Origin: Escherichia coli
GTDB taxonomy: Bacteria; Pseudomonadota; Gammaproteobacteria; Enterobacterales; Enterobacteriaceae
NCBI RefSeq assembly: GCF_024700885.2
Contig: NZ_CP117016.1
Length of the DNA: 64,000 nt
Strand: one strand, 5' to 3'
Shown piece by piece: positions 30,828 to 49,004 of the stretch. The notes beneath the pieces are model-generated. The model saw only the letters and a program-made list of their open reading frames with translations. It searched no databases and had not been told where the DNA came from. The number at the start of each line of letters is the position of its first letter. Position 1 is the stretch's first letter. A program made the position numbers and the translations under genes.

Positions 30828-32069
30828 TTAATCCTTAGCCTGCAACAGCGCGATAGTACGATTCATTTCGTTGAAGACGATATCGAGGCCTTCGTCAAAG
30901 CCCATCCCTGGCTTTACCAGCATACGCATAGGGCGAGCGGCAAGGGCGATGTGGACACAGGTGCGGGCACTGACATCAGTTTCATTGCAGGTGCCGCCCT
31001 GGTACGCTTCCATGCTGTGGCTATTGCAGTAAAGAACCGCATCGACGATGTTGTGAATACTGCCCAGATCCGGGGTTTTGATTTGCACCATGTGACAACT
31101 GGCGGCATCAGTAAAATCAACAATATCCTGGTAGGTGTTACACCATTCATCGGCCACAATTTTCACGCCGGAACCGAGGCGCGTCAGCTCTTTGGTAATC
31201 GCGGTCAGCAGGCGAATTTGATCGGGCTTGTTACCGGCATCGACCGGACCTTCAATGTAGAGCGGCAGGCCTTGCGCTTCTTTTTCCAGGCTGGCGATGT
31301 ATTGCGCACAGCGAAGCGGATCCATATCGAAGATCAGACCGATAGTGCCGTATACATCGATGTGCAGGGTAGGGTGGTAGCGTGCGCTGGTGCGCTTGCT
31401 CAGAATACGATCCGACAGCCAGCGGACATATTCGCGCAGTTTTTCACCTTTAAAGCCCAGTTTCTCTTCGACGTTATTAATCAGTGCATGGGGCAGCACG
31501 TCGATGCCCTTAAGGATCATCTTATCGACGGCGATATATCGATCGTCGCCGCTCTGACCAAATAATGGAATGGATTCCGCCACGCGTGGCAACTGCCATT
31601 CATCACAGACCACTTCAGTTTTCAGACGGCCGGTTGCCAGCGCGGTAGCATCAAGCAGCGCCTGTGATAATCCGTAGCGCACGGCGGTATGCAGCAAGTT
31701 GCCGTCAATACGCAATTTGTCGAAGAAACGGGCATTCGGCAGGAAAGCATCTACATCGCGGCCTACCAGTAATGGCTTGATATGGTCGTTGAGGAACGGA
31801 ATAAAGTGCTCTGCGAGGAACAGTGGATCGCGACCACCTGCCCCGGAATACTGTACGGCAGCACAGTCACCTACGGCGACCGCGCCGTTTTCCAGAATCA
31901 ACTGTACCGATACGCACTCCCCGGCCTGACGTACGGCGTTAAACCCCTGTGTTACTGGCTCCCCGGTATAAAAAAAGCCGTCGTGACCCGCTCCGTTTTT
32001 TATCGCCTGCTGGTCATCGAAATAGAATGAGGAGTAGCCAGCGGTGAACAGGGCCTGTTTTATTTTCAT
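30828..32069 (-). CDS. 3-methylaspartate ammonia-lyase (methylaspartase, enolase superfamily), 413 aa
   Basis: N-terminus MKIKQALFTAGYSSFYFDDQQAIKNGAGHDGFFYTGEPVT and length are typical of methylaspartase; start overlaps the glmE stop. Confidence 0.9.
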   Translation of the reverse strand: MKIKQALFTAGYSSFYFDDQQAIKNGAGHDGFFYTGEPVTQGFNAVRQAGECVSVQLILENGAVAVGDCAAVQYSGAGGRDPLFLAEHFIPFLNDHIKPLLVGRDVDAFLPNARFFDKLRIDGNLLHTAVRYGLSQALLDATALATGRLKTEVVCDEWQLPRVAESIPLFGQSGDDRYIAVDKMILKGIDVLPHALINNVEEKLGFKGEKLREYVRWLSDRILSKRTSARYHPTLHIDVYGTIGLIFDMDPLRCAQYIASLEKEAQGLPLYIEGPVDAGNKPDQIRLLTAITKELTRLGSGVKIVADEWCNTYQDIVDFTDAASCHMVQIKTPDLGSIHNIVDAVLYCNSHSMEAYQGGTCNETDVSARTCVHIALAARPMRMLVKPGMGFDEGLDIVFNEMNRTIALLQAKD

Positions 32070-33514
32070 TATGGTCTTCCTATTAATTTACTGTGGGATA
32101 CAGCATTGATGTCATCTACAACCATCTGGAATGTCGGTTGGCGTCCTTCAAAGCGTGCGCGTTCCGCAACGTAATCGTGGTGGAGGTCGAGAATATCTTT
32201 TGGCAATGGAACGGCTCCGGCTTCCAGTACGCGTATCGCGCCGGTGTTGTCACGGACCGGAAGAATTTTGCCCGCGTTGCAGGCGGCTGGCGCAAACGGC
32301 ACATCCAGTACGCCCGCTTCAAATGCCAGCACCGTACCGCGCGCAATATCACCATTACCCAGTTCGAACACTTTATTCAGTACCGCGCGAACCTCGCTCT
32401 TAATCAGTTCAATTTCCAGTTCAACCGCAGGGCAAGGCGGGAATTTCTGCTCGTTGACCATGTTGAGCATCTGGCGGGAGGCTTTCAGCCCCTGAATGTT
32501 GGCAGCGGCAGTCGGGATGCCCCAGGCTTCGTGCGGACTTTTGGTGATGACTTTGGTGGCACCAGACATCCCCGCGACGGCTGCACCCCAGGAGATAATG
32601 GCGAACGCTTTCGATTCGTCTTCCGGAAAGCCGCCCATCCACTGGTGAAACACGGTACTTAATTCATAGTCGGTATAGCCATAGCTCTGAAAGTATTCGT
32701 GTGCAAGTTCACGCAGAGACTGGATCGCCGCGACATCCTGCGTCAGGCTGCCGACCTGTCCATAACCAACGGTGATAGATTTCACACCCTGTTCCAGCGC
32801 CAGTAATCCTTCGATTATCGCGATAGAGTGCGAGATAAACGGCGGGATCAGCGTACCCGTTAGTGGGCCAAACGGTTCGCGGTTGATGCGGATCCCGTGT
32901 TCTTCATACATCCCCATTAAACGATCGCAGTACTGCCAGTCGCGGATCGATTTTTCCAGCGTTACGCGCTTGGCATACGGAATATTGTAGGAAATGCCGC
33001 CGCCTTCATAACTGGTAAAGCCGCTGGCCATCGAGATTTCAGCCAGCAGACGCGCATCTGGCGTGCCGTGGCGGATCTGTAGCGGTTTTTGCAAAGTTTC
33101 GGTGAGGCGACGGCAAGCTGCGACGCCGTGGTTAACTACCGGTAAACCGTTCAGTTTAGAGGTTCCGGCTTCGATGGATTTTTTAATCCCTACAGCCGCT
33201 TCTTCGTACCGATTCAGACGGGTATATGCATCGATGGTGCTCGGCAGCAGATCGCACTCTTCTTGTGGTGTTTTCAGTAGTTCGATGTGTTCGTCCATCA
33301 GCGCCACGCCTGCGCGCGGTTGGCTAAGAGTTTTACCTTCCTTGTCTGCTTTCAGCAGGGCAAGAGAGAAGCGTTTATGCTCAGGAATGGTTTGTTGGTA
33401 TTTAACGCCATCTTCAAAGTTTTCAACATCCTTGCCGGTTTCCCAGGTTTTCAGTACCTGTTGCCGCTCGGTCATGAATTCGTCATGGGTTAATTTCTTA
33501 TTTCGAAGTTCCAT
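32069..33514 (-). CDS. glmE: Glutamate mutase epsilon (catalytic, E) subunit, 481 aa
   Basis: Length and sequence consistent with methylaspartate mutase E chain; sits between glmL and the methylaspartase gene as in clostridial glmS-glmL-glmE clusters. Confidence 0.88.
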   Translation of the reverse strand: MELRNKKLTHDEFMTERQQVLKTWETGKDVENFEDGVKYQQTIPEHKRFSLALLKADKEGKTLSQPRAGVALMDEHIELLKTPQEECDLLPSTIDAYTRLNRYEEAAVGIKKSIEAGTSKLNGLPVVNHGVAACRRLTETLQKPLQIRHGTPDARLLAEISMASGFTSYEGGGISYNIPYAKRVTLEKSIRDWQYCDRLMGMYEEHGIRINREPFGPLTGTLIPPFISHSIAIIEGLLALEQGVKSITVGYGQVGSLTQDVAAIQSLRELAHEYFQSYGYTDYELSTVFHQWMGGFPEDESKAFAIISWGAAVAGMSGATKVITKSPHEAWGIPTAAANIQGLKASRQMLNMVNEQKFPPCPAVELEIELIKSEVRAVLNKVFELGNGDIARGTVLAFEAGVLDVPFAPAACNAGKILPVRDNTGAIRVLEAGAVPLPKDILDLHHDYVAERARFEGRQPTFQMVVDDINAVSHSKLIGRP

Positions 33515-33749
33515 TGATTGCAGCCTTAATTGTTATAGGGTTAAGCATTGAATACTGGTGCGCGCGGCGGCCAGTGGATCGACTCTGGCGACGTTTGCCA
33601 GCAGTGGTAATAGCCCCCGGGAATCGCGGTAATATTCAAATTCGGTCGGTAAGAGAATGCGTTTACCGTCGTCGTTTAACTCGCGGTATTTCAACCAGTG
33701 ATGCATATCGAACTGACTGGCACGCGAGAGCCATCCGCCGGAACCAACG

Positions 33750-33757
33750 ACTTTACG
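33750..33757. repeat. Target-site duplication (left copy) ACTTTACG
   Basis: 8-bp direct repeat immediately flanking the IS26 left inverted repeat. Confidence 0.85.
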
Positions 33758-34577
33758 GGCACTGTTGCAAATAGTCGGTGGTGATAAACTTATCATCCCC
33801 TTTTGCTGATGGAGCTGCACATGAACCCATTCAAAGGCCGGCATTTTCAGCGTGACATCATTCTGTGGGCCGTACGCTGGTACTGCAAATACGGCATCAG
33901 TTACCGTGAGCTGCAGGAGATGCTGGCTGAACGCGGAGTGAATGTCGATCACTCCACGATTTACCGCTGGGTTCAGCGTTATGCGCCTGAAATGGAAAAA
34001 CGGCTGCGCTGGTACTGGCGTAACCCTTCCGATCTTTGCCCGTGGCACATGGATGAAACCTACGTGAAGGTCAATGGCCGCTGGGCGTATCTGTACCGGG
34101 CCGTCGACAGCCGGGGCCGCACTGTCGATTTTTATCTCTCCTCCCGTCGTAACAGCAAAGCTGCATACCGGTTTCTGGGTAAAATCCTCAACAACGTGAA
34201 GAAGTGGCAGATCCCGCGATTCATCAACACGGATAAAGCGCCCGCCTATGGTCGCGCGCTTGCTCTGCTCAAACGCGAAGGCCGGTGCCCGTCTGACGTT
34301 GAACACCGACAGATTAAGTACCGGAACAACGTGATTGAATGCGATCATGGCAAACTGAAACGGATAATCGGCGCCACGCTGGGATTTAAATCCATGAAGA
34401 CGGCTTACGCCACCATCAAAGGTATTGAGGTGATGCGTGCACTACGCAAAGGCCAGGCCTCAGCATTTTATTATGGTGATCCCCTGGGCGAAATGCGCCT
34501 GGTAAGCAGAGTTTTTGAAATGTAAGGCCTTTGAATAAGACAAAAGGCTGCCTCATCGCTAACTTTGCAACAGTGCC
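33758..34577 (+). mobile_element. IS26 (IS6 family), complete 820-bp copy
   Basis: 14-bp terminal inverted repeats GGCACTGTTGCAAA (33758-33771) and TTTGCAACAGTGCC (34564-34577); internal transposase matches IS26 Tnp as I recall; flanked by 8-bp direct repeats. Confidence 0.93.
33821..34525 (+). CDS. tnpA: IS26 transposase Tnp26 (DDE), 234 aa
   Basis: MNPFKGRHFQRDIILWAVRWYCKYGISYRELQEMLAERGVNVDHSTIYRWVQRYAPEMEK is the canonical IS26 transposase N-terminus (from memory); start placed at the ATG 18 nt inside the ORF-track start. Confidence 0.93.
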   Translation: MNPFKGRHFQRDIILWAVRWYCKYGISYRELQEMLAERGVNVDHSTIYRWVQRYAPEMEKRLRWYWRNPSDLCPWHMDETYVKVNGRWAYLYRAVDSRGRTVDFYLSSRRNSKAAYRFLGKILNNVKKWQIPRFINTDKAPAYGRALALLKREGRCPSDVEHRQIKYRNNVIECDHGKLKRIIGATLGFKSMKTAYATIKGIEVMRALRKGQASAFYYGDPLGEMRLVSRVFEM

Positions 34578-34585
34578 ACTTTACG
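34578..34585. repeat. Target-site duplication (right copy) ACTTTACG
   Basis: 8-bp direct repeat immediately flanking the IS26 right inverted repeat. Confidence 0.85.
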
Positions 34586-35748
34586 CACGGTTGTCAGGTC
34601 ACGTCCCATCTGTAAATCGACATTGCCGACGCAGGTGCAGACCTCTTTTTTGGTGCCCGCATGTCTTTCGGTGGCATAACCCACACACAGTCCGGCCAGG
34701 ACGGTATCGAAATATTTTTCTTCTGCATTCGCGGGTAAGTAGTCGGGATGAGCGACTAGATGGCGGAGGTAATGATAAAAAGCGTCCAGCTGTGCGGGTT
34801 GCTGAGCAAAATTCACATTGACTAACTCTTTCGCACTTTCACCAACCACCATTGCCGAGACGCGCATTCCCAGATCGCCTTCCACCGTCCGTTTCACGAA
34901 GGGTTCCGGTACGCCGTGTAAAACGGTGTCGGGCGAGAGCGTGTTGGCACAGGCGGAATAGACATCGGTGGTTGCGCCACCCATGTCGATCAGCATGAAC
35001 TCTTTCCAGCTGTGATCGACGTTACTGATTGCCTTAACCAGTTCAAAGACCGTCCATGGTGTCGGCATTGGTTCTTCGCCTGTTTTATCAACAATGACAT
35101 CCAACCCTTTCCCTTTAACGATGCGTTTAAGGAATATGTCGCAGATAGCCTGGCGTGCAGCTAAAGGGTTCGGATGGTCAAGATCGGGCAGAACGTTGTC
35201 GACGATGGTCAGGTCTTTATGCCCGAGGATCTCCTGCACCTCGTCCTGAATATCCCGGTTTCCGGCATAAATAATGGCGCAGTCGAGTTTGGATTCTGCC
35301 AACACACGGGCGTTATTCAGTCCGTAGCTTTCTTCTCCGCCATCGGTGCCGCCGGTGAACAAGAGAATATCGGGCTGCGTTTCTTCCAGTGCCTGGATAT
35401 CACGGCGGTTCAGCTTGTAGGCGTAATATTGCGCAATTTTAGCACCCGCAGAGTGAGCGGTTACTTTCGCGGTTTCCAGGGTGATAGAAGGCACCAATCC
35501 CATTGCGGCAACCGCCAGCCCACCTTTGGCAGAGGAGGAATACTTCAATGCAACCTCACCACTGTTTAACAGGGGGAGGGCATTATCTACGTTTAACACC
35601 TGGTCCAGGCTGGAGAAAAACCCCTTCGCCAGATGATGGGTGGTGGTTGGGGTCAGAACGTGGTTAACCAACGTTAACGCGTCCCCCTCCCGGGTGAAGA
35701 GGGCTGCTTTGGTCCACGTCGAACCAATATCGACAGAGACGATTTGCA

Positions 35749-36198
35749 TCAGATTGCCTCTTCAAGAATGCGAGTATCAACGTCATGACGTTGGTTGATA
35801 TCGTGGGCCATCAGCTGACAAACATCTTCTAAGTCATGACTTGGGGAAAAGACGCGATCAAATCCCATCTCTTTGAACTTGGTTTCCACGTCAGCGAAGT
35901 CATGTTTTCCGACCACCAGGTTACCGCCCACATAGAGCAGGATGTTACCCAGCCCACGCTCGATGCAGCGTTCGCGCATGCCCAGACAATCGATATCGCC
36001 ATGCCCATAGATAGAGGAGACGACAATCGCGTCAGCACCAGTTTCAATGGCAGCATCAATATATTCGTCCTGGCTGACCATTACGCCCAGATTAATAACT
36101 CTGAAGTCATGGTTGCTAAAAACGCGGTCCAGAACTTTATTGCCTACTGCATGGCAGTCCGCGCCAATAACGCCAATCACAAGTGTTGCTTTCTTCAT
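35749..36198 (-). CDS. glmS: Glutamate mutase sigma (B12-binding, S) subunit, about 149 aa
   Basis: [24 protein letters not shown] contains the DxHxxG cobalamin-binding signature; start at ATG 36198 preceded by AGGA; stop overlaps the glmL start (ATGA). Confidence 0.88.
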
Positions 36199-36745
36199 GG
36201 GTAATCCTTTGTAAGACAGAGAGTAAAATAAGTTACACACGTCGTATTTATGGCCGCTCATAACGGCACAGGTTTAATATCACAGGAGTGTCTTTATCTG
36301 ACCGTAATGTTGCAATTGATCTATTTTCAAAATGTCTTTCGGGAAATGATTGTTTAAAGTGTGTTTTCAAATTCTCATTTTAATTCAGTGTGTTATGTCA
36401 ACTAATGTCATGAATGTTAAATTTTTAAAATTAACTTGATTTGATGTATTGAGATAATTGTGATCAACTTCTAATTTGCATTTTTGTGACGTGGCTTTAG
36501 CCATGAGTAAATACATTTCATAAAAGTTAAGTCGAATTTCACTGCAATTCATCTCTGCTTAATGTAAAAATAATGTTGAAAATAACAAATAATTAATGAT
36601 TCATGCGAATTATGACCTTTGTTAGCTCTTTTGATTTTTCGTAAAAAAGAAAAGTACATGAAGGTGCTACCAGTACGAGTAACGTTAATCAAAAGTTTTA
36701 TTACGTCTGGCAATAACGCAGGCCATTTTTCGCGACAGGAGGGAT

Positions 36746-37168
36746 TTAATCAGTATAATCCTCATACAATAGGTCAGGATTTACTGAACCGTTAACGGGG
36801 ATTTGGTGTTGAAATTTAGAAATGGCGGAGTCAATTAATGAAGACAATATCGGAAAAATGACAGTGTCAGAATTAATTTCAATTAATCCTTCTCGTTGTT
36901 GACCAAAAAAGATATTTATCTTGATTTCATTTGTACTACGGCAATCAATATGCAGTAATTTTTGATCGCTGAGATTTTCTGTTTCATAAATGTTTTTGGC
37001 GATAGTCGGATGTATTGATGCCAGACATCTGCTCAGATAAGCCAGATCCTTTAGGGAACACCCCGCTGAGTAGAGGATGTCAGAGAATTTTTGTGTGTCA
37101 ACTGTTGTCTCTGAAGCGTATGTTGCATTGACAGGAAGGGTGTTGAAAGAGATTTGAGATGGGATCAT
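36746..37168 (-). CDS. Hypothetical protein, 140 aa, no recognisable family
   Basis: ORF in a markedly AT-rich block; co-directional with and 80 bp downstream of the 314-aa orphan ORF; coding status unverified. Confidence 0.45.
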   Translation of the reverse strand: MIPSQISFNTLPVNATYASETTVDTQKFSDILYSAGCSLKDLAYLSRCLASIHPTIAKNIYETENLSDQKLLHIDCRSTNEIKINIFFGQQREGLIEINSDTVIFPILSSLIDSAISKFQHQIPVNGSVNPDLLYEDYTD

Positions 37169-37248
37169 TATTTAAATCTTTCCGTGAGTAATAAAAATTA
37201 ATCCCCGGGCATTGTTTAGCAATATTTGCCACAGGGAATATATAAAAA

Positions 37249-38193
37249 TTAAAGTATTTGATTGGCATCGGTTAACTGATCAATAACCAGTGCCAGATTG
37301 GTAAACATTTTGAAAAAGCGATACTGGCTCGGAATATCTCTTTCAAAGACGAAACATTCAATGTCATTGTTTGAAAAATAAAGGACTAGTGTTGCTGATT
37401 CGTCAGGAAAAATATGGAAATATATCTGGTTACCAGAAGGAGGATAGTCCAGATGAAGGGTATCTTTGCCCGTCACATACCTGTTGTGGTCGTGGATGCT
37501 GCGCTCACACTTCATCAGAGGTGTCATGATACTCATGTATTCATCTGATGTTAATATATTAAAATCACCATCCATTTTAAAGAAACGATAAAGTAACAGT
37601 ACATCCTCTTGCGTAACCGGTTCGTTTGTTTTTAGAGGGAAATAAGTGGGAACCAGAAGATGAGGTTCTAATCTATTTTGTTGAGCGCTATAACTAAATT
37701 TGAACATAAATTCCGGATCGCTCATTAATTGAGCGACATAATTATGCCTGGCTTCAAAAATTTTAACTTTTATCAGGTTAAATAAGTCTGTTTCGTTATC
37801 CTGTATTAAAAGACATTGGCCATAGCAGCCAGGCTTTTTTTCATTATAAGCAGAAACGGTTATTCTGTCAGGAGTGTCAACGTTATATCCAAAAGCCAGA
37901 TAGTGACCTTCCTCATCGAGATTTGTTTCCAGGTTATTTAAATTCATCACATGAAGTGTTTGCAATGCTGATTCAATGAGCTGTTGACTCTCTGAGGTAA
38001 ATGTTTCGCGCTGCGTTGTATAAAGTGTATCGATTCCAACGACTATCCGATGTGGGTCAAGGATGGCGGCAATCATCTTTATTACCTGCACAGTCATGGG
38101 TGATGTCATTGATTCTTTATCTGTTTTTAGAGGATCATTAGATGGCCAACCTGAGAAGCGATTGACAGCAGAACTGATATTATCAGGACTCAT
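37249..38193 (-). CDS. Hypothetical protein, 314 aa, no recognisable family
   Basis: Longest ORF in an AT-rich region with no competing frame; no signal peptide or transmembrane segment evident; no motif I can assign. Confidence 0.55.
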   Translation of the reverse strand: MSPDNISSAVNRFSGWPSNDPLKTDKESMTSPMTVQVIKMIAAILDPHRIVVGIDTLYTTQRETFTSESQQLIESALQTLHVMNLNNLETNLDEEGHYLAFGYNVDTPDRITVSAYNEKKPGCYGQCLLIQDNETDLFNLIKVKIFEARHNYVAQLMSDPEFMFKFSYSAQQNRLEPHLLVPTYFPLKTNEPVTQEDVLLLYRFFKMDGDFNILTSDEYMSIMTPLMKCERSIHDHNRYVTGKDTLHLDYPPSGNQIYFHIFPDESATLVLYFSNNDIECFVFERDIPSQYRFFKMFTNLALVIDQLTDANQIL

Positions 38194-43882: not shown

Positions 43883-45148
43883 GTGTCAAAGGCAACCGAA
43901 CAAAACGACAAGCTCAAGCGGGCGATAATTATTTCAGCAGTGCTGCATGTCATCTTATTTGCGGCGCTGATCTGGAGTTCGTTCGATGAGAATATAGAAG
44001 CTTCAGCCGGAGGCGGCGGTGGTTCATCCATCGACGCTGTCATGGTTGATTCAGGTGCGGTAGTTGAGCAGTACAAACGCATGCAAAGCCAGGAATCAAG
44101 CGCGAAGCGTTCTGATGAGCAGCGCAAGATGAAGGAACAGCAGGCTGCTGAAGAACTGCGTGAGAAACAAGCGGCTGAACAGGAACGCCTGAAGCAACTT
44201 GAGAAAGAGCGGTTAGCTGCTCAGGAACAGAAAAAGCAGGCTGAAGAAGCCGCAAAACAGGCCGAGTTAAAGCAGAAGCAAGCGGAAGAAGCGGCAGCGA
44301 AAGCGGCGGCAGATGCTAAAGCGAAGGCCGAAGCGGATGCTAAAGCTGCGGAAGAAGCTGCGAAGAAAGCGGCTGCAGACGCGAAGAAAAAAGCAGAAGC
44401 AGAAGCCGCCAAAGCCGCAGCCGAAGCGCAGAAAAAAGCCGAGGCAGCCGCGGCGGCACTGAAGAAGAAAGCGGAAGCGGCAGAAGCAGCTGCAGCTGAA
44501 GCAAGAAAGAAAGCGGCAACTGAAGCTGCTGAAAAAGCCAAGGCAGAAGCTGAGAAGAAAGCGGCTGCTGAAAAGGCTGCAGCTGATAAGAAAGCGGCAG
44601 CAGAGAAAGCTGCAGCCGACAAAAAAGCAGCAGAAAAAGCGGCTGCTGAAAAGGCAGCTGCTGATAAGAAAGCAGCGGCAGAAAAAGCCGCCGCAGACAA
44701 AAAAGCGGCAGCGGCAAAAGCAGCAGCTGAAAAAGCCGCTGCAGCAAAAGCTGCCGCAGAGGCAGATGATATTTTCGGTGAGCTAAGCTCTGGTAAGAAT
44801 GCACCGAAAACGGGGGGAGGGGCGAAAGGGAACAATGCTTCGCCAGCCGGGAGTGGTAATACTAAAAACAATGGCGCATCAGGGGCCGATATCAATAACT
44901 ATGCCGGGCAGATTAAATCTGCTATCGAAAGTAAGTTCTATGACGCATCGTCCTATGCAGGCAAAACCTGTACGCTGCGCATAAAACTGGCACCCGATGG
45001 TATGTTACTGGATATCAAACCTGAAGGTGGCGATCCCGCACTTTGTCAGGCTGCGTTGGCAGCAGCTAAACTTGCGAAGATCCCGAAACCACCAAGCCAG
45101 GCAGTATATGAAGTGTTCAAAAACGCGCCATTGGACTTCAAACCGTAA
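43883..45148 (+). CDS. tolA: Tol-Pal system protein TolA, 421 aa
   Basis: N-terminal anchor, long Ala/Lys/Glu-rich helical domain II, C-terminal domain III. Confidence 0.96.
   Translation: MSKATEQNDKLKRAIIISAVLHVILFAALIWSSFDENIEASAGGGGGSSIDAVMVDSGAVVEQYKRMQSQESSAKRSDEQRKMKEQQAAEELREKQAAEQERLKQLEKERLAAQEQKKQAEEAAKQAELKQKQAEEAAAKAAADAKAKAEADAKAAEEAAKKAAADAKKKAEAEAAKAAAEAQKKAEAAAAALKKKAEAAEAAAAEARKKAATEAAEKAKAEAEKKAAAEKAAADKKAAAEKAAADKKAAEKAAAEKAAADKKAAAEKAAADKKAAAAKAAAEKAAAAKAAAEADDIFGELSSGKNAPKTGGGAKGNNASPAGSGNTKNNGASGADINNYAGQIKSAIESKFYDASSYAGKTCTLRIKLAPDGMLLDIKPEGGDPALCQAALAAAKLAKIPKPPSQAVYEVFKNAPLDFKP
44130..44760 (+). repeat. Imperfect tandem repeats encoding TolA domain II (A/K/E-rich helix)
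   Basis: Recurring DNA units such as gctgcagccgacaaaaaagcagc / gaaaaggcagctgctgataagaaagc visible by eye. Confidence 0.8.
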
Positions 45149-45280
45149 TCGCGATGTTGACTTTTCCGACGGTCAACATCAGGCACCGGTTGCCACGGGG
45201 TTCTGGTAGTTTTGTGTATTTTAGTTTGTTAACATTCTGCTAAATTATCGTGGGCCATCGGTCCAGATAAGGGAGATATG

Positions 45281-46573
45281 ATGAAGCAGGCATTACGAGT
45301 AGCATTTGGTTTTCTCATACTGTGGGCATCAGTTCTGCATGCTGAAGTCCGCATTGTGATCGACAGCGGTGTAGATTCCGGTCGTCCTATTGGTGTTGTT
45401 CCTTTCCAGTGGGCGGGTCCTGGTGCGGCACCTGAAGATATTGGCGGCATCGTTGCTGCTGACTTGCGTAACAGCGGTAAATTTAATCCGTTAGATCGCG
45501 CTCGTCTGCCACAGCAGCCGGGTAGTGCGCAGGAAGTACAACCAGCTGCATGGTCCGCACTGGGCATTGACGCTGTAGTTGTCGGTCAGGTCACTCCGAA
45601 TCCGGATGGTTCTTACAATGTTGCTTATCAACTTGTTGACACTGGCGGCGCACCGGGTACTGTACTTGCTCAGAACTCGTACAAAGTGAACAAGCAGTGG
45701 CTGCGTTATGCTGGTCATACCGCCAGTGATGAAGTGTTTGAAAAACTGACCGGCATTAAAGGTGCGTTCCGTACCCGTATTGCCTACGTTGTTCAGACCA
45801 ACGGCGGTCAGTTCCCGTATGAACTGCGCGTATCTGACTATGACGGTTACAACCAGTTTGTCGTTCACCGTTCACCGCAGCCGCTGATGTCTCCGGCGTG
45901 GTCACCAGACGGTTCTAAACTGGCTTATGTGACCTTCGAAAGCGGTCGTTCCGCGCTGGTCATCCAAACGCTGGCAAATGGCGCTGTACGTCAGGTGGCT
46001 TCATTCCCGCGTCACAACGGTGCACCTGCATTCTCGCCAGACGGCAGCAAACTGGCATTCGCCTTGTCGAAAACCGGTAGTCTGAACCTGTACGTAATGG
46101 ATTTGGCTTCTGGTCAGATCCGCCAGGTGACGGATGGTCGCAGTAACAATACCGAACCGACCTGGTTCCCGGACAGCCAGAACTTGGCATTTACTTCTGA
46201 CCAGGCCGGTCGTCCACAGGTTTATAAAGTGAATATCAACGGCGGTGCGGCACAACGTATTACCTGGGAAGGTTCGCAGAACCAGGATGCGGATGTCAGC
46301 AGCGACGGTAAATTTATGGTAATGGTCAGCTCCAATGGTGGGCAGCAGCACATTGCCAAACAAGATCTGGCAACGGGAGGCGTACAAGTTCTGTCGTCCA
46401 CGTTCCTGGATGAAACGCCAAGTCTGGCACCTAACGGCACTATGGTAATCTACAGCTCTTCTCAGGGGATGGGATCCGTGCTGAATTTGGTTTCTACAGA
46501 TGGGCGTTTCAAAGCGCGTCTTCCGGCAACTGATGGACAGGTCAAATTCCCTGCCTGGTCGCCGTATCTGTGA
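45281..46573 (+). CDS. tolB: Tol-Pal system periplasmic protein TolB, 430 aa
   Basis: Signal peptide [21 protein letters not shown] and beta-propeller repeats. Confidence 0.96.
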
Positions 46574-47930: not shown

Positions 47931-48094
47931 TGCATAACACACGACCAGAAGTCGCATTATTTCTGGTCGTGTCGTGCGAATCATAAGCAGTTGAGTGATC
48001 TACATCGAAATTTTTGTTGCGCTCAAGTCTGAAATCAGTAATATATGCCGCCGTTGCCACGGGATATCAAACAAACCGAAAGCAACGAAAAAGT

Positions 48095-48170
48095 GGGTCG
48101 TTAGCTCAGTTGGTAGAGCAGTTGACTTTTAATCAATTGGTCGCAGGTTCGAATCCTGCACGACCCACCA
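48095..48170 (+). tRNA. lysT: tRNA-Lys (anticodon UUU)
   Basis: 76-nt GGGTCGTTAGCTCAGTTGGTAGAGCAGTTGACTTTTAATCAATTGGTCGCAGGTTCGAATCCTGCACGACCCACCA; anticodon loop CTTTTAA; encoded CCA. Confidence 0.97.
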
Positions 48171-48198
48171 ATCGCTAAGGTGGACGCGGTAGTAAAAC

Positions 48199-48270
48199 GT
48201 GAAGGATAACGTTGCGTCAGCAACGGCCCGAAGGGCGAGACGAAGTCGAGTCATCCTGCACGACCCACCA
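48199..48270 (+). repeat. Spacer repeat ending in a duplicated tRNA-Lys 3' end (copy 1)
   Basis: GTGAAGGATAACGTTGCGTCAGCAACGGCCCG...TCATCCTGCACGACCCACCA recurs at 48694-48763; the last 20 nt equal the tRNA-Lys acceptor/T-arm end. Confidence 0.8.
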
Positions 48271-48305
48271 CTAACCTAGTTAGTTGTAGTATCCAGCGTA
48301 GTATC

Positions 48306-48381
48306 GGGTGATTAGCTCAGCTGGGAGAGCACCTCCCTTACAAGGAGGGGGTCGGCGGTTCGATCCCGTCATCACCCACCA
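48306..48381 (+). tRNA. valT: tRNA-Val (anticodon UAC)
   Basis: 76-nt GGGTGATTAGCTCAGCTGGGAGAGCACCTCCCTTACAAGGAGGGGGTCGGCGGTTCGATCCCGTCATCACCCACCA; anticodon loop CTTACAA. Confidence 0.97.
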
Positions 48382-48383
48382 CC

Positions 48384-48459
48384 GGGTCGTTAGCTCAGTT
48401 GGTAGAGCAGTTGACTTTTAATCAATTGGTCGCAGGTTCGAATCCTGCACGACCCACCA
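48384..48459 (+). tRNA. lysW: tRNA-Lys (anticodon UUU)
   Basis: Identical 76-nt tRNA-Lys sequence. Confidence 0.97.
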
Positions 48460-48510
48460 CTAATTACGGTGGGTTCGGTGGAAGTAGTTTGTAGTATCCA
48501 GCGCAGTATC

Positions 48511-48586
48511 GGGTGATTAGCTCAGCTGGGAGAGCACCTCCCTTACAAGGAGGGGGTCGGCGGTTCGATCCCGTCATCACCCACCA
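48511..48586 (+). tRNA. valZ: tRNA-Val (anticodon UAC)
   Basis: Identical 76-nt tRNA-Val sequence. Confidence 0.97.
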
Positions 48587-48589
48587 CTC

Positions 48590-48665
48590 GGGTCGTTAGC
48601 TCAGTTGGTAGAGCAGTTGACTTTTAATCAATTGGTCGCAGGTTCGAATCCTGCACGACCCACCA
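48590..48665 (+). tRNA. lysY: tRNA-Lys (anticodon UUU)
   Basis: Identical 76-nt tRNA-Lys sequence. Confidence 0.97.
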
Positions 48666-48693
48666 ATTTTAACATCAAACTCAGATGTTAAGC

Positions 48694-48763
48694 GTGAAGG
48701 ATAACGTTGCGTCAGCAACGGCCCGTAGGGCGAGCGAAGCGAGTCATCCTGCACGACCCACCA
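48694..48763 (+). repeat. Spacer repeat ending in a duplicated tRNA-Lys 3' end (copy 2)
   Basis: Near-identical to 48199-48270. Confidence 0.8.
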
Positions 48764-48811
48764 ATTTTAAAGATTGGTTCCGAGTAGAAATCTTTCAGGT
48801 AACACCCGTAT

Positions 48812-48887
48812 GGGTCGTTAGCTCAGTTGGTAGAGCAGTTGACTTTTAATCAATTGGTCGCAGGTTCGAATCCTGCACGACCCACCA
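48812..48887 (+). tRNA. lysZ: tRNA-Lys (anticodon UUU)
   Basis: Identical 76-nt tRNA-Lys sequence. Confidence 0.97.
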
Positions 48888-48920
48888 TCCTGAATGATTA
48901 AAGCAGCATAATCCCGCAAG

Positions 48921-48996
48921 GGGTCGTTAGCTCAGTTGGTAGAGCAGTTGACTTTTAATCAATTGGTCGCAGGTTCGAATCCTGCACGACCCACCA
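48921..48996 (+). tRNA. lysQ: tRNA-Lys (anticodon UUU)
   Basis: Identical 76-nt tRNA-Lys sequence, followed by a terminator. Confidence 0.97.
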
Positions 48997-49004
48997 ATGT
49001 AAAA

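Follow-up and report, generated by a model that had tools for sequence, protein, structure and literature searches.

The DNA analysed here, a stretch of 64,000 nucleotides from Escherichia coli (contig NZ_CP117016.1 of assembly GCF_024700885.2) referred to as the window, carries the gene for the Tol-Pal system protein TolA within the cluster ybgC-tolQ-tolR-tolA-tolB-pal-cpoB. The open reading frames (ORFs) found around tolA in the window are ybgE, ybgC, tolQ, tolR, tolB and pal, and their order is the one annotated in K-12 MG1655 and in strain E700025, whose DNA matches the window at 99.98% identity over 22.4 kb. The identity of the gene is established by profile matches together with this operon order. 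The full-length protein is recognized by the NCBIfam TolA equivalog NF007065 (554 bits against a cut-off of 213) and by TIGR02794 (308 bits against a cut-off of 59), and its C-terminal domain matches Pfam PF06519 (E = 2e-38; 130.9 bits against a cut-off of 25). Among the structures of the PDB, 1tol, 2x9a, 3qdp and 1s62, all of domain III, match residues 292-421, and 9k49_H, a full-length TolA chain of 421 residues, matches the window protein from end to end (E = 2.6e-227).

The tolA of K-12 MG1655 (b0739, NP_415267.1) and that of the window are both 1266 bp long and encode 421 aa, and the two genes share the same operon context. When they were compared without gaps and by MAFFT global alignment, 15 substitutions and 0 gaps were observed (98.8% DNA identity). 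All 15 are third-codon-position, synonymous changes, so that the two TolA proteins are identical and the silent changes are the only difference between the genes. Ten of them fall inside 44130-44760, and four lie in or beside the repeat tract described below. An earlier note on this DNA had named the gene tolA and given 421 aa as the K-12 length, and both statements are confirmed by the profiles and by b0739. The note had also stated that the repeats within the gene show no expansion or contraction, and the K-12 alignment agrees, as there is no indel in the repeat region. E. coli strain 1190 carries a DNA allele 100% identical to that of the window, and strains like E700025 share it across the region.

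Some observations were made elsewhere in the window. Downstream of tolA, the listed tolB ORF (45278-46573, MMKQ..., 431 aa) begins one codon upstream of the annotated 430-aa start, which is that of K-12 and of other RefSeq records; the extra start codon is an artefact of ORF listing and no sequence difference. Seven tRNA genes (Lys, Val) at about 48090-49000, downstream of cpoB, belong to the normal lysT-valT region, and this cluster yields many near-identical 76-bp internal repeats in self-comparison. Upstream of cydA, at about 32000-37500, a methylaspartate-pathway island replaces the K-12 arrangement. It contains the genes of methylaspartate ammonia-lyase, of the mutase subunits E and S and of the mutase accessory protein (glmL), as well as two hypothetical genes, and it is uncommon: window positions 32000-56999 are covered to 80% or more in only 62 of the 5426 complete E. 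coli genomes. In the island, glmL is interrupted by an element of 820 bp (33758-34577), which we take to be a copy of IS26 from its size, its ends and its target duplication. The element has perfect 14-bp inverted ends (GGCACTGTTGCAAA), is flanked by an 8-bp target-site duplication (ACTTTACG, at 33750-33757 and 34578-34585) and contains a transposase ORF of 238 aa on the + strand. The closest complete genomes, E700025, elppa4 and S1-SRL-01-C, lack the insertion, although their sequences on either side of it are 99.9-100% identical to the window, and the insertion-bearing stretch is fully covered by no complete RefSeq genome.

Table 1. Features of tolA and of its repeat region in the window (positions counted from the first letter of the window).
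Feature	Position	Strand	Basis
tolA coding sequence, GTG start, 421 aa	43883..45148	+	ORF list, NCBIfam, Pfam, K-12 b0739
A/K/E-rich part of TolA domain II, 211 codons	44129..44761	+	composition, translation
Weak degenerate repeats, periods 6, 9, 12, 24	44270..44441	+	Tandem Repeats Finder, second repeat search (family D2)
Less conserved repeat-like units directly upstream of TR1	44507..44551	+	natural indels, 15/18 bp copy spacing
Core variable tandem-repeat tract, 13 in-frame imperfect units	44552..44758	+	unit decomposition, primers, Tandem Repeats Finder
Higher-order 78-bp (five-unit) repeat, 2.0 copies, 87% matches	44553..44711	+	Tandem Repeats Finder, codon identity, alleles
TolA C-terminal domain (domain III), residues 325-419	44855..45139	+	Pfam PF06519
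Spurious antisense ORF, 224 aa, low-complexity Ala/Phe/Ser	44221..44895	-	ORF list, stop counts, RefSeq annotation
Spurious antisense ORF, 154 aa, Leu/Pro/Gln/Ser-rich	44340..44804	-	ORF list, substitutions

The central part of TolA, domain II, is highly biased in composition. In its A/K/E-rich part, Ala (99), Lys (46) and Glu (35) take up 85% of the codons, and T makes up only 7% of the sense strand. The domain II sequence of the window is that of the K-12 protein, which is helical according to literature cited by PMC3477136. The earlier note had described this linker as encoded by imperfect tandem repeats, and this was borne out by Tandem Repeats Finder, which gave 13 overlapping rows in the repeat region of tolA. 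The strong arrays are confined to 44540-44760, where they have periods of 15, 30, 33, 48 and 78 bp, and the top array, that of the 78-bp period, has a score of 248. The arrays farther upstream (44270-44441) are weak, with scores of 32-68, and include an AAGCAG run of 2.7 copies at 44391-44406, where a natural allele has gained 6 bp. In the same search of the tolA region, no array was found at 44130-44269. A second, independent repeat search detected copies 15 or 18 bp apart across 44492-44760.

The core tract is resolved, unit by unit, into four units of 18 bp and nine of 15 bp, which encode EKKAAA, EKAAA, DKKAAA and the like and follow the general form (E/D/A)K(K)AA(A). Thirteen imperfect, in-frame 15/18 bp units are therefore present in the C-terminal part of domain II. 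The forward primer published by Zhou et al. for the "pure" repeat tract has an exact match at 44549, and their reverse primer matches 44734-44755 with one mismatch, itself a synonymous K-12 difference. Among exact direct repeats in the region, the longest measures 20 bp and occurs at 44558 and 44636, that is, at a lag of 78 bp. As to the extent of the repeats, the range 44130-44760 given by the earlier note is the whole A/K/E-rich domain II; the true repeat tract is its 3' third, and the variable part is limited to 44552-44758 plus the degenerate units just upstream.

This tract has already been described. Zhou, Michiels and Aertsen (PLoS One 2012; PMC3477136) reported that tolA contains 13 imperfect repeats of 15/18 bp in the C-terminal part of domain II and that every unit is unique in DNA sequence. 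Among 234 isolates, the copy number ranged from 8 to 16, and 66% had 13 copies (PMC3477136). In a reporter allele, contractions occurred at a frequency of 6.9e-5, with the five-unit deletion predominant among them, and degenerate units upstream sometimes participated in the rearrangement (PMC3477136). In a recA mutant, contractions were found at 15% of the parental frequency, and most of them were attributed to RecA-dependent recombination; a uvrD mutation raised contractions 3.3-fold, and mutS had no effect on the stability of the repeat (PMC3477136). Moreover, engineered alleles of 2 to 39 units rescued a tolA deletion unequally when deoxycholate, SDS, osmolarity and phage fd were considered (PMC3477136). 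The window tract shares with the published one its 13 units, the positions of both primers and the prominence of five-unit (78/81 bp) changes among alleles, and no difference between the two was found; the wider sample of assembled genomes presented below adds putative sizes of about 18 and about 23 units. Other in-frame intragenic repeats of E. coli cited in PMC3477136 are the TCT tract of ahpC and the CTGGCG tract of mutL. As in tolA, in-frame copy changes of these tracts alter protein function without a frameshift. Their units, however, are of 3-6 bp, perfect and few, whereas the tolA units are longer (15 or 18 bp), are imperfect and all differ in DNA sequence, and the lack of a MutS effect on repeat stability (PMC3477136) also sets tolA apart from them.

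The length of tolA varies across the species. Of 5426 complete E. coli genomes, 5421 contain the full gene. Size classes were determined in two evenly spaced systematic samples taken down the match ranking, which gave 97 distinct full-length records and do not represent a census; the resulting counts are of genomes and not of independent events. The 1266-bp gene was found in 65 of these 97 genomes (67%; Wilson 95% interval 57-76%), as compared to the 66% of 234 isolates carrying the modal 13-unit allele in the published survey. The remaining genes are distributed over 16 other size classes of 1185-1422 bp, in all of which the length differs from 1266 bp by a multiple of 3. The 17 size classes in 97 genomes represent an in-frame copy-number polymorphism, which is located in the tract, as seen when one record per variant size class was aligned pairwise. 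All 16 variants are annotated as intact tolA and have no internal stops in translation, and every indel falls within 44390-44728. In one variant (L010), 6 bp are inserted after 44390, at the AAGCAG run, and all other indels lie within 44507-44728. The frequent steps are of 15, 33, 45/48 and 78/81 bp, corresponding to one, two, three and five units. The less conserved units directly upstream of the core tract are involved in the indels of six variants (L002, L004, L009, L011, L013 and L016), by deletions of 44507-44587 and 44519-44566 and by insertions after 44522-44547. Two further alleles, L003 (-78 bp) and L015 (+78 bp), match the size of the 78-bp higher-order repeat. The tract had been called prone to slippage in the earlier note. 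Its instability is supported, as about one third of the sampled genomes differ in in-frame length, but the mechanism is mainly RecA-dependent recombination according to the published experiments (PMC3477136).

The sampled O157:H7 genomes have three tolA sizes (1215, 1275 and 1422 bp), whereas all nine copies of the 1311-bp allele, carried by ST131 among others, have the same score and are probably one lineage allele; the counts thus mix lineage alleles with more recent changes. The largest genes are those of L015 and L016, from the strains 127 and Survcare321, with +78 and +81 bp (1344 and 1347 bp; about 18 units), and that of L017, from the O157:H7 strain TR01, with +156 bp (1422 bp; about 23 units). 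The insert of L017 is irregular and encodes ...AETTEAAEKAEEKAAEK..., and this 1422-bp allele may be real or may be an assembly error. Alleles of about 18 and about 23 units in assembled genomes exceed the published range of 8-16, which is only a mildly new observation and not one of the window itself. The account given in PMC3477136 agrees with the frequency of 67%, with the prominence of changes of 78/81 bp and with the exact repeat of 20 bp at lag 78.

Almost certainly, the window tract is the variable-number tandem repeat already known from within the tolA gene of E. coli, in its modal 13-unit allele. A different reading would regard the periodicity as nothing but the protein-level composition of an Ala/Lys/Glu helix, with no DNA repeat relevant to genome stability, and part of the evidence from shuffled sequences is in its favor. 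The peak in-frame autocorrelation of the tract, 0.758, was reached by none of 300 dinucleotide shuffles (0.405 +/- 0.025) and by none of 300 codon shuffles (0.578 +/- 0.021), but by 112 of 300 synonymous-codon shuffles in which the protein was kept (0.746 +/- 0.021), and therefore the protein repeat forces most of the DNA periodicity. Across all of domain II, 137 of 300 synonymous-codon shuffles reached the observed autocorrelation. Similarly, the length of the 20-bp exact repeat was attained by 21-29 of 200 synonymous shuffles and is not exceptional. A recent DNA-level duplication, which had been considered as a candidate, was dropped on this basis, the old five-unit one excepted, as the periodicity and the longest repeat are explained by the protein repeat. 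Composition, however, does not account for codon choice at the higher-order period: at same-residue positions of the tract, the use of identical codons at lag 78 is 0.56 versus 0.37 expected, a value that exceeds 299 of 300 synonymous shuffles and is reached by one. When all of domain II is considered at lag 15, identical-codon use is 0.48 versus 0.35, and again one shuffle of 300 reaches it. The picture is that of an old five-unit higher-order duplication, whose units have since diverged at silent sites. The composition reading is also contradicted by the natural alleles, in which whole-unit in-frame indels occur exactly in the tract and in sizes that correspond to one, two, three and five units, and by the contractions measured in culture (PMC3477136). 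It is therefore considered very improbable.

Two further readings concern the coding content of the region. The antisense ORFs are long, and 0 of the 12 K-12 versus window substitutions inside the 224-aa ORF change its translation, as might be expected if one of the two ORFs were a real overlapping gene. The frame of the 224-aa ORF, however, shares third codon positions with tolA, so the count is uninformative, and the apparent conservation was rejected as a geometric artefact. In the 154-aa ORF, conversely, 7 of 7 substitutions alter amino acids, all of them being silent in tolA. Over the 211 codons, the three minus-strand frames contain 2, 1 and 2 stops, in agreement with the 2.8 expected from base composition. 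The complements of the stop codons (TTA, CTA and TCA) are rare because the sense strand is so poor in T, and the long antisense ORFs result from this; composition, not repetition, is their direct cause. The earlier note was correct in calling such ORFs spurious, and its attribution of them to the repeats is refined accordingly. Both products are low-complexity mirror images of the A/K/E sequence, and in the inspected RefSeq records no feature other than tolA is annotated at these sites. Both ORFs are best read as spurious, and the chance that either is a gene is minimal. With regard to tolA itself, one might suspect, from a DNA identity of only 98.8% and from the four differences in or next to the tract, that this strain has an expanded, contracted or functionally altered gene as compared to the reference. 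Such a change is excluded by the gapless alignment, by the synonymous nature of all 15 differences, which leave a protein equal to K-12 TolA, and by the occurrence of the same DNA allele in strain 1190 (100%) and across the region in E700025. Since the protein is identical to that of K-12, no functional change is expected in the window genome.

Within the known 13-unit repeat, codon choice between units looks near random, the 78-bp higher-order repeat excepted. The DNA similarity between units is barely above the level forced by the protein, and the tract is therefore a poor substrate for slippage as compared to perfect repeats. It is conceivable, but rather unlikely, that the scrambled codons have been selected to damp recombination, or that the alleles of about 18 and about 23 units are real and adaptive in their lineages. 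Neither idea is specific to the window, which has an ordinary allele; the tract is an established finding, and the window adds nothing new to it.

In the proposed mechanism of variation, domain II, as a long alpha-helical segment, would link the inner-membrane anchor of TolA to the C-terminal domain. Homologous recombination between units, mainly RecA-dependent by experiment, would act together with some slippage to add or remove whole units, and the helix would be lengthened or shortened while the reading frame stays intact. Each unit of five or six residues would in this way change the length of the helix and hence the reach of TolA across the periplasm.

For the window genome, the tract is of little consequence, given the common 13-unit form and a protein identical to that of K-12. 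Its practical effects are long false antisense ORFs, ambiguous alignments and a likely site of assembly errors. Beyond this genome, tolA copy number affects how well cells tolerate bile salts, detergents and osmolarity and how susceptible they are to filamentous phage (PMC3477136). As an in-frame bacterial repeat the tract is a textbook case, the number of its units setting the length of a helix that spans the periplasm.
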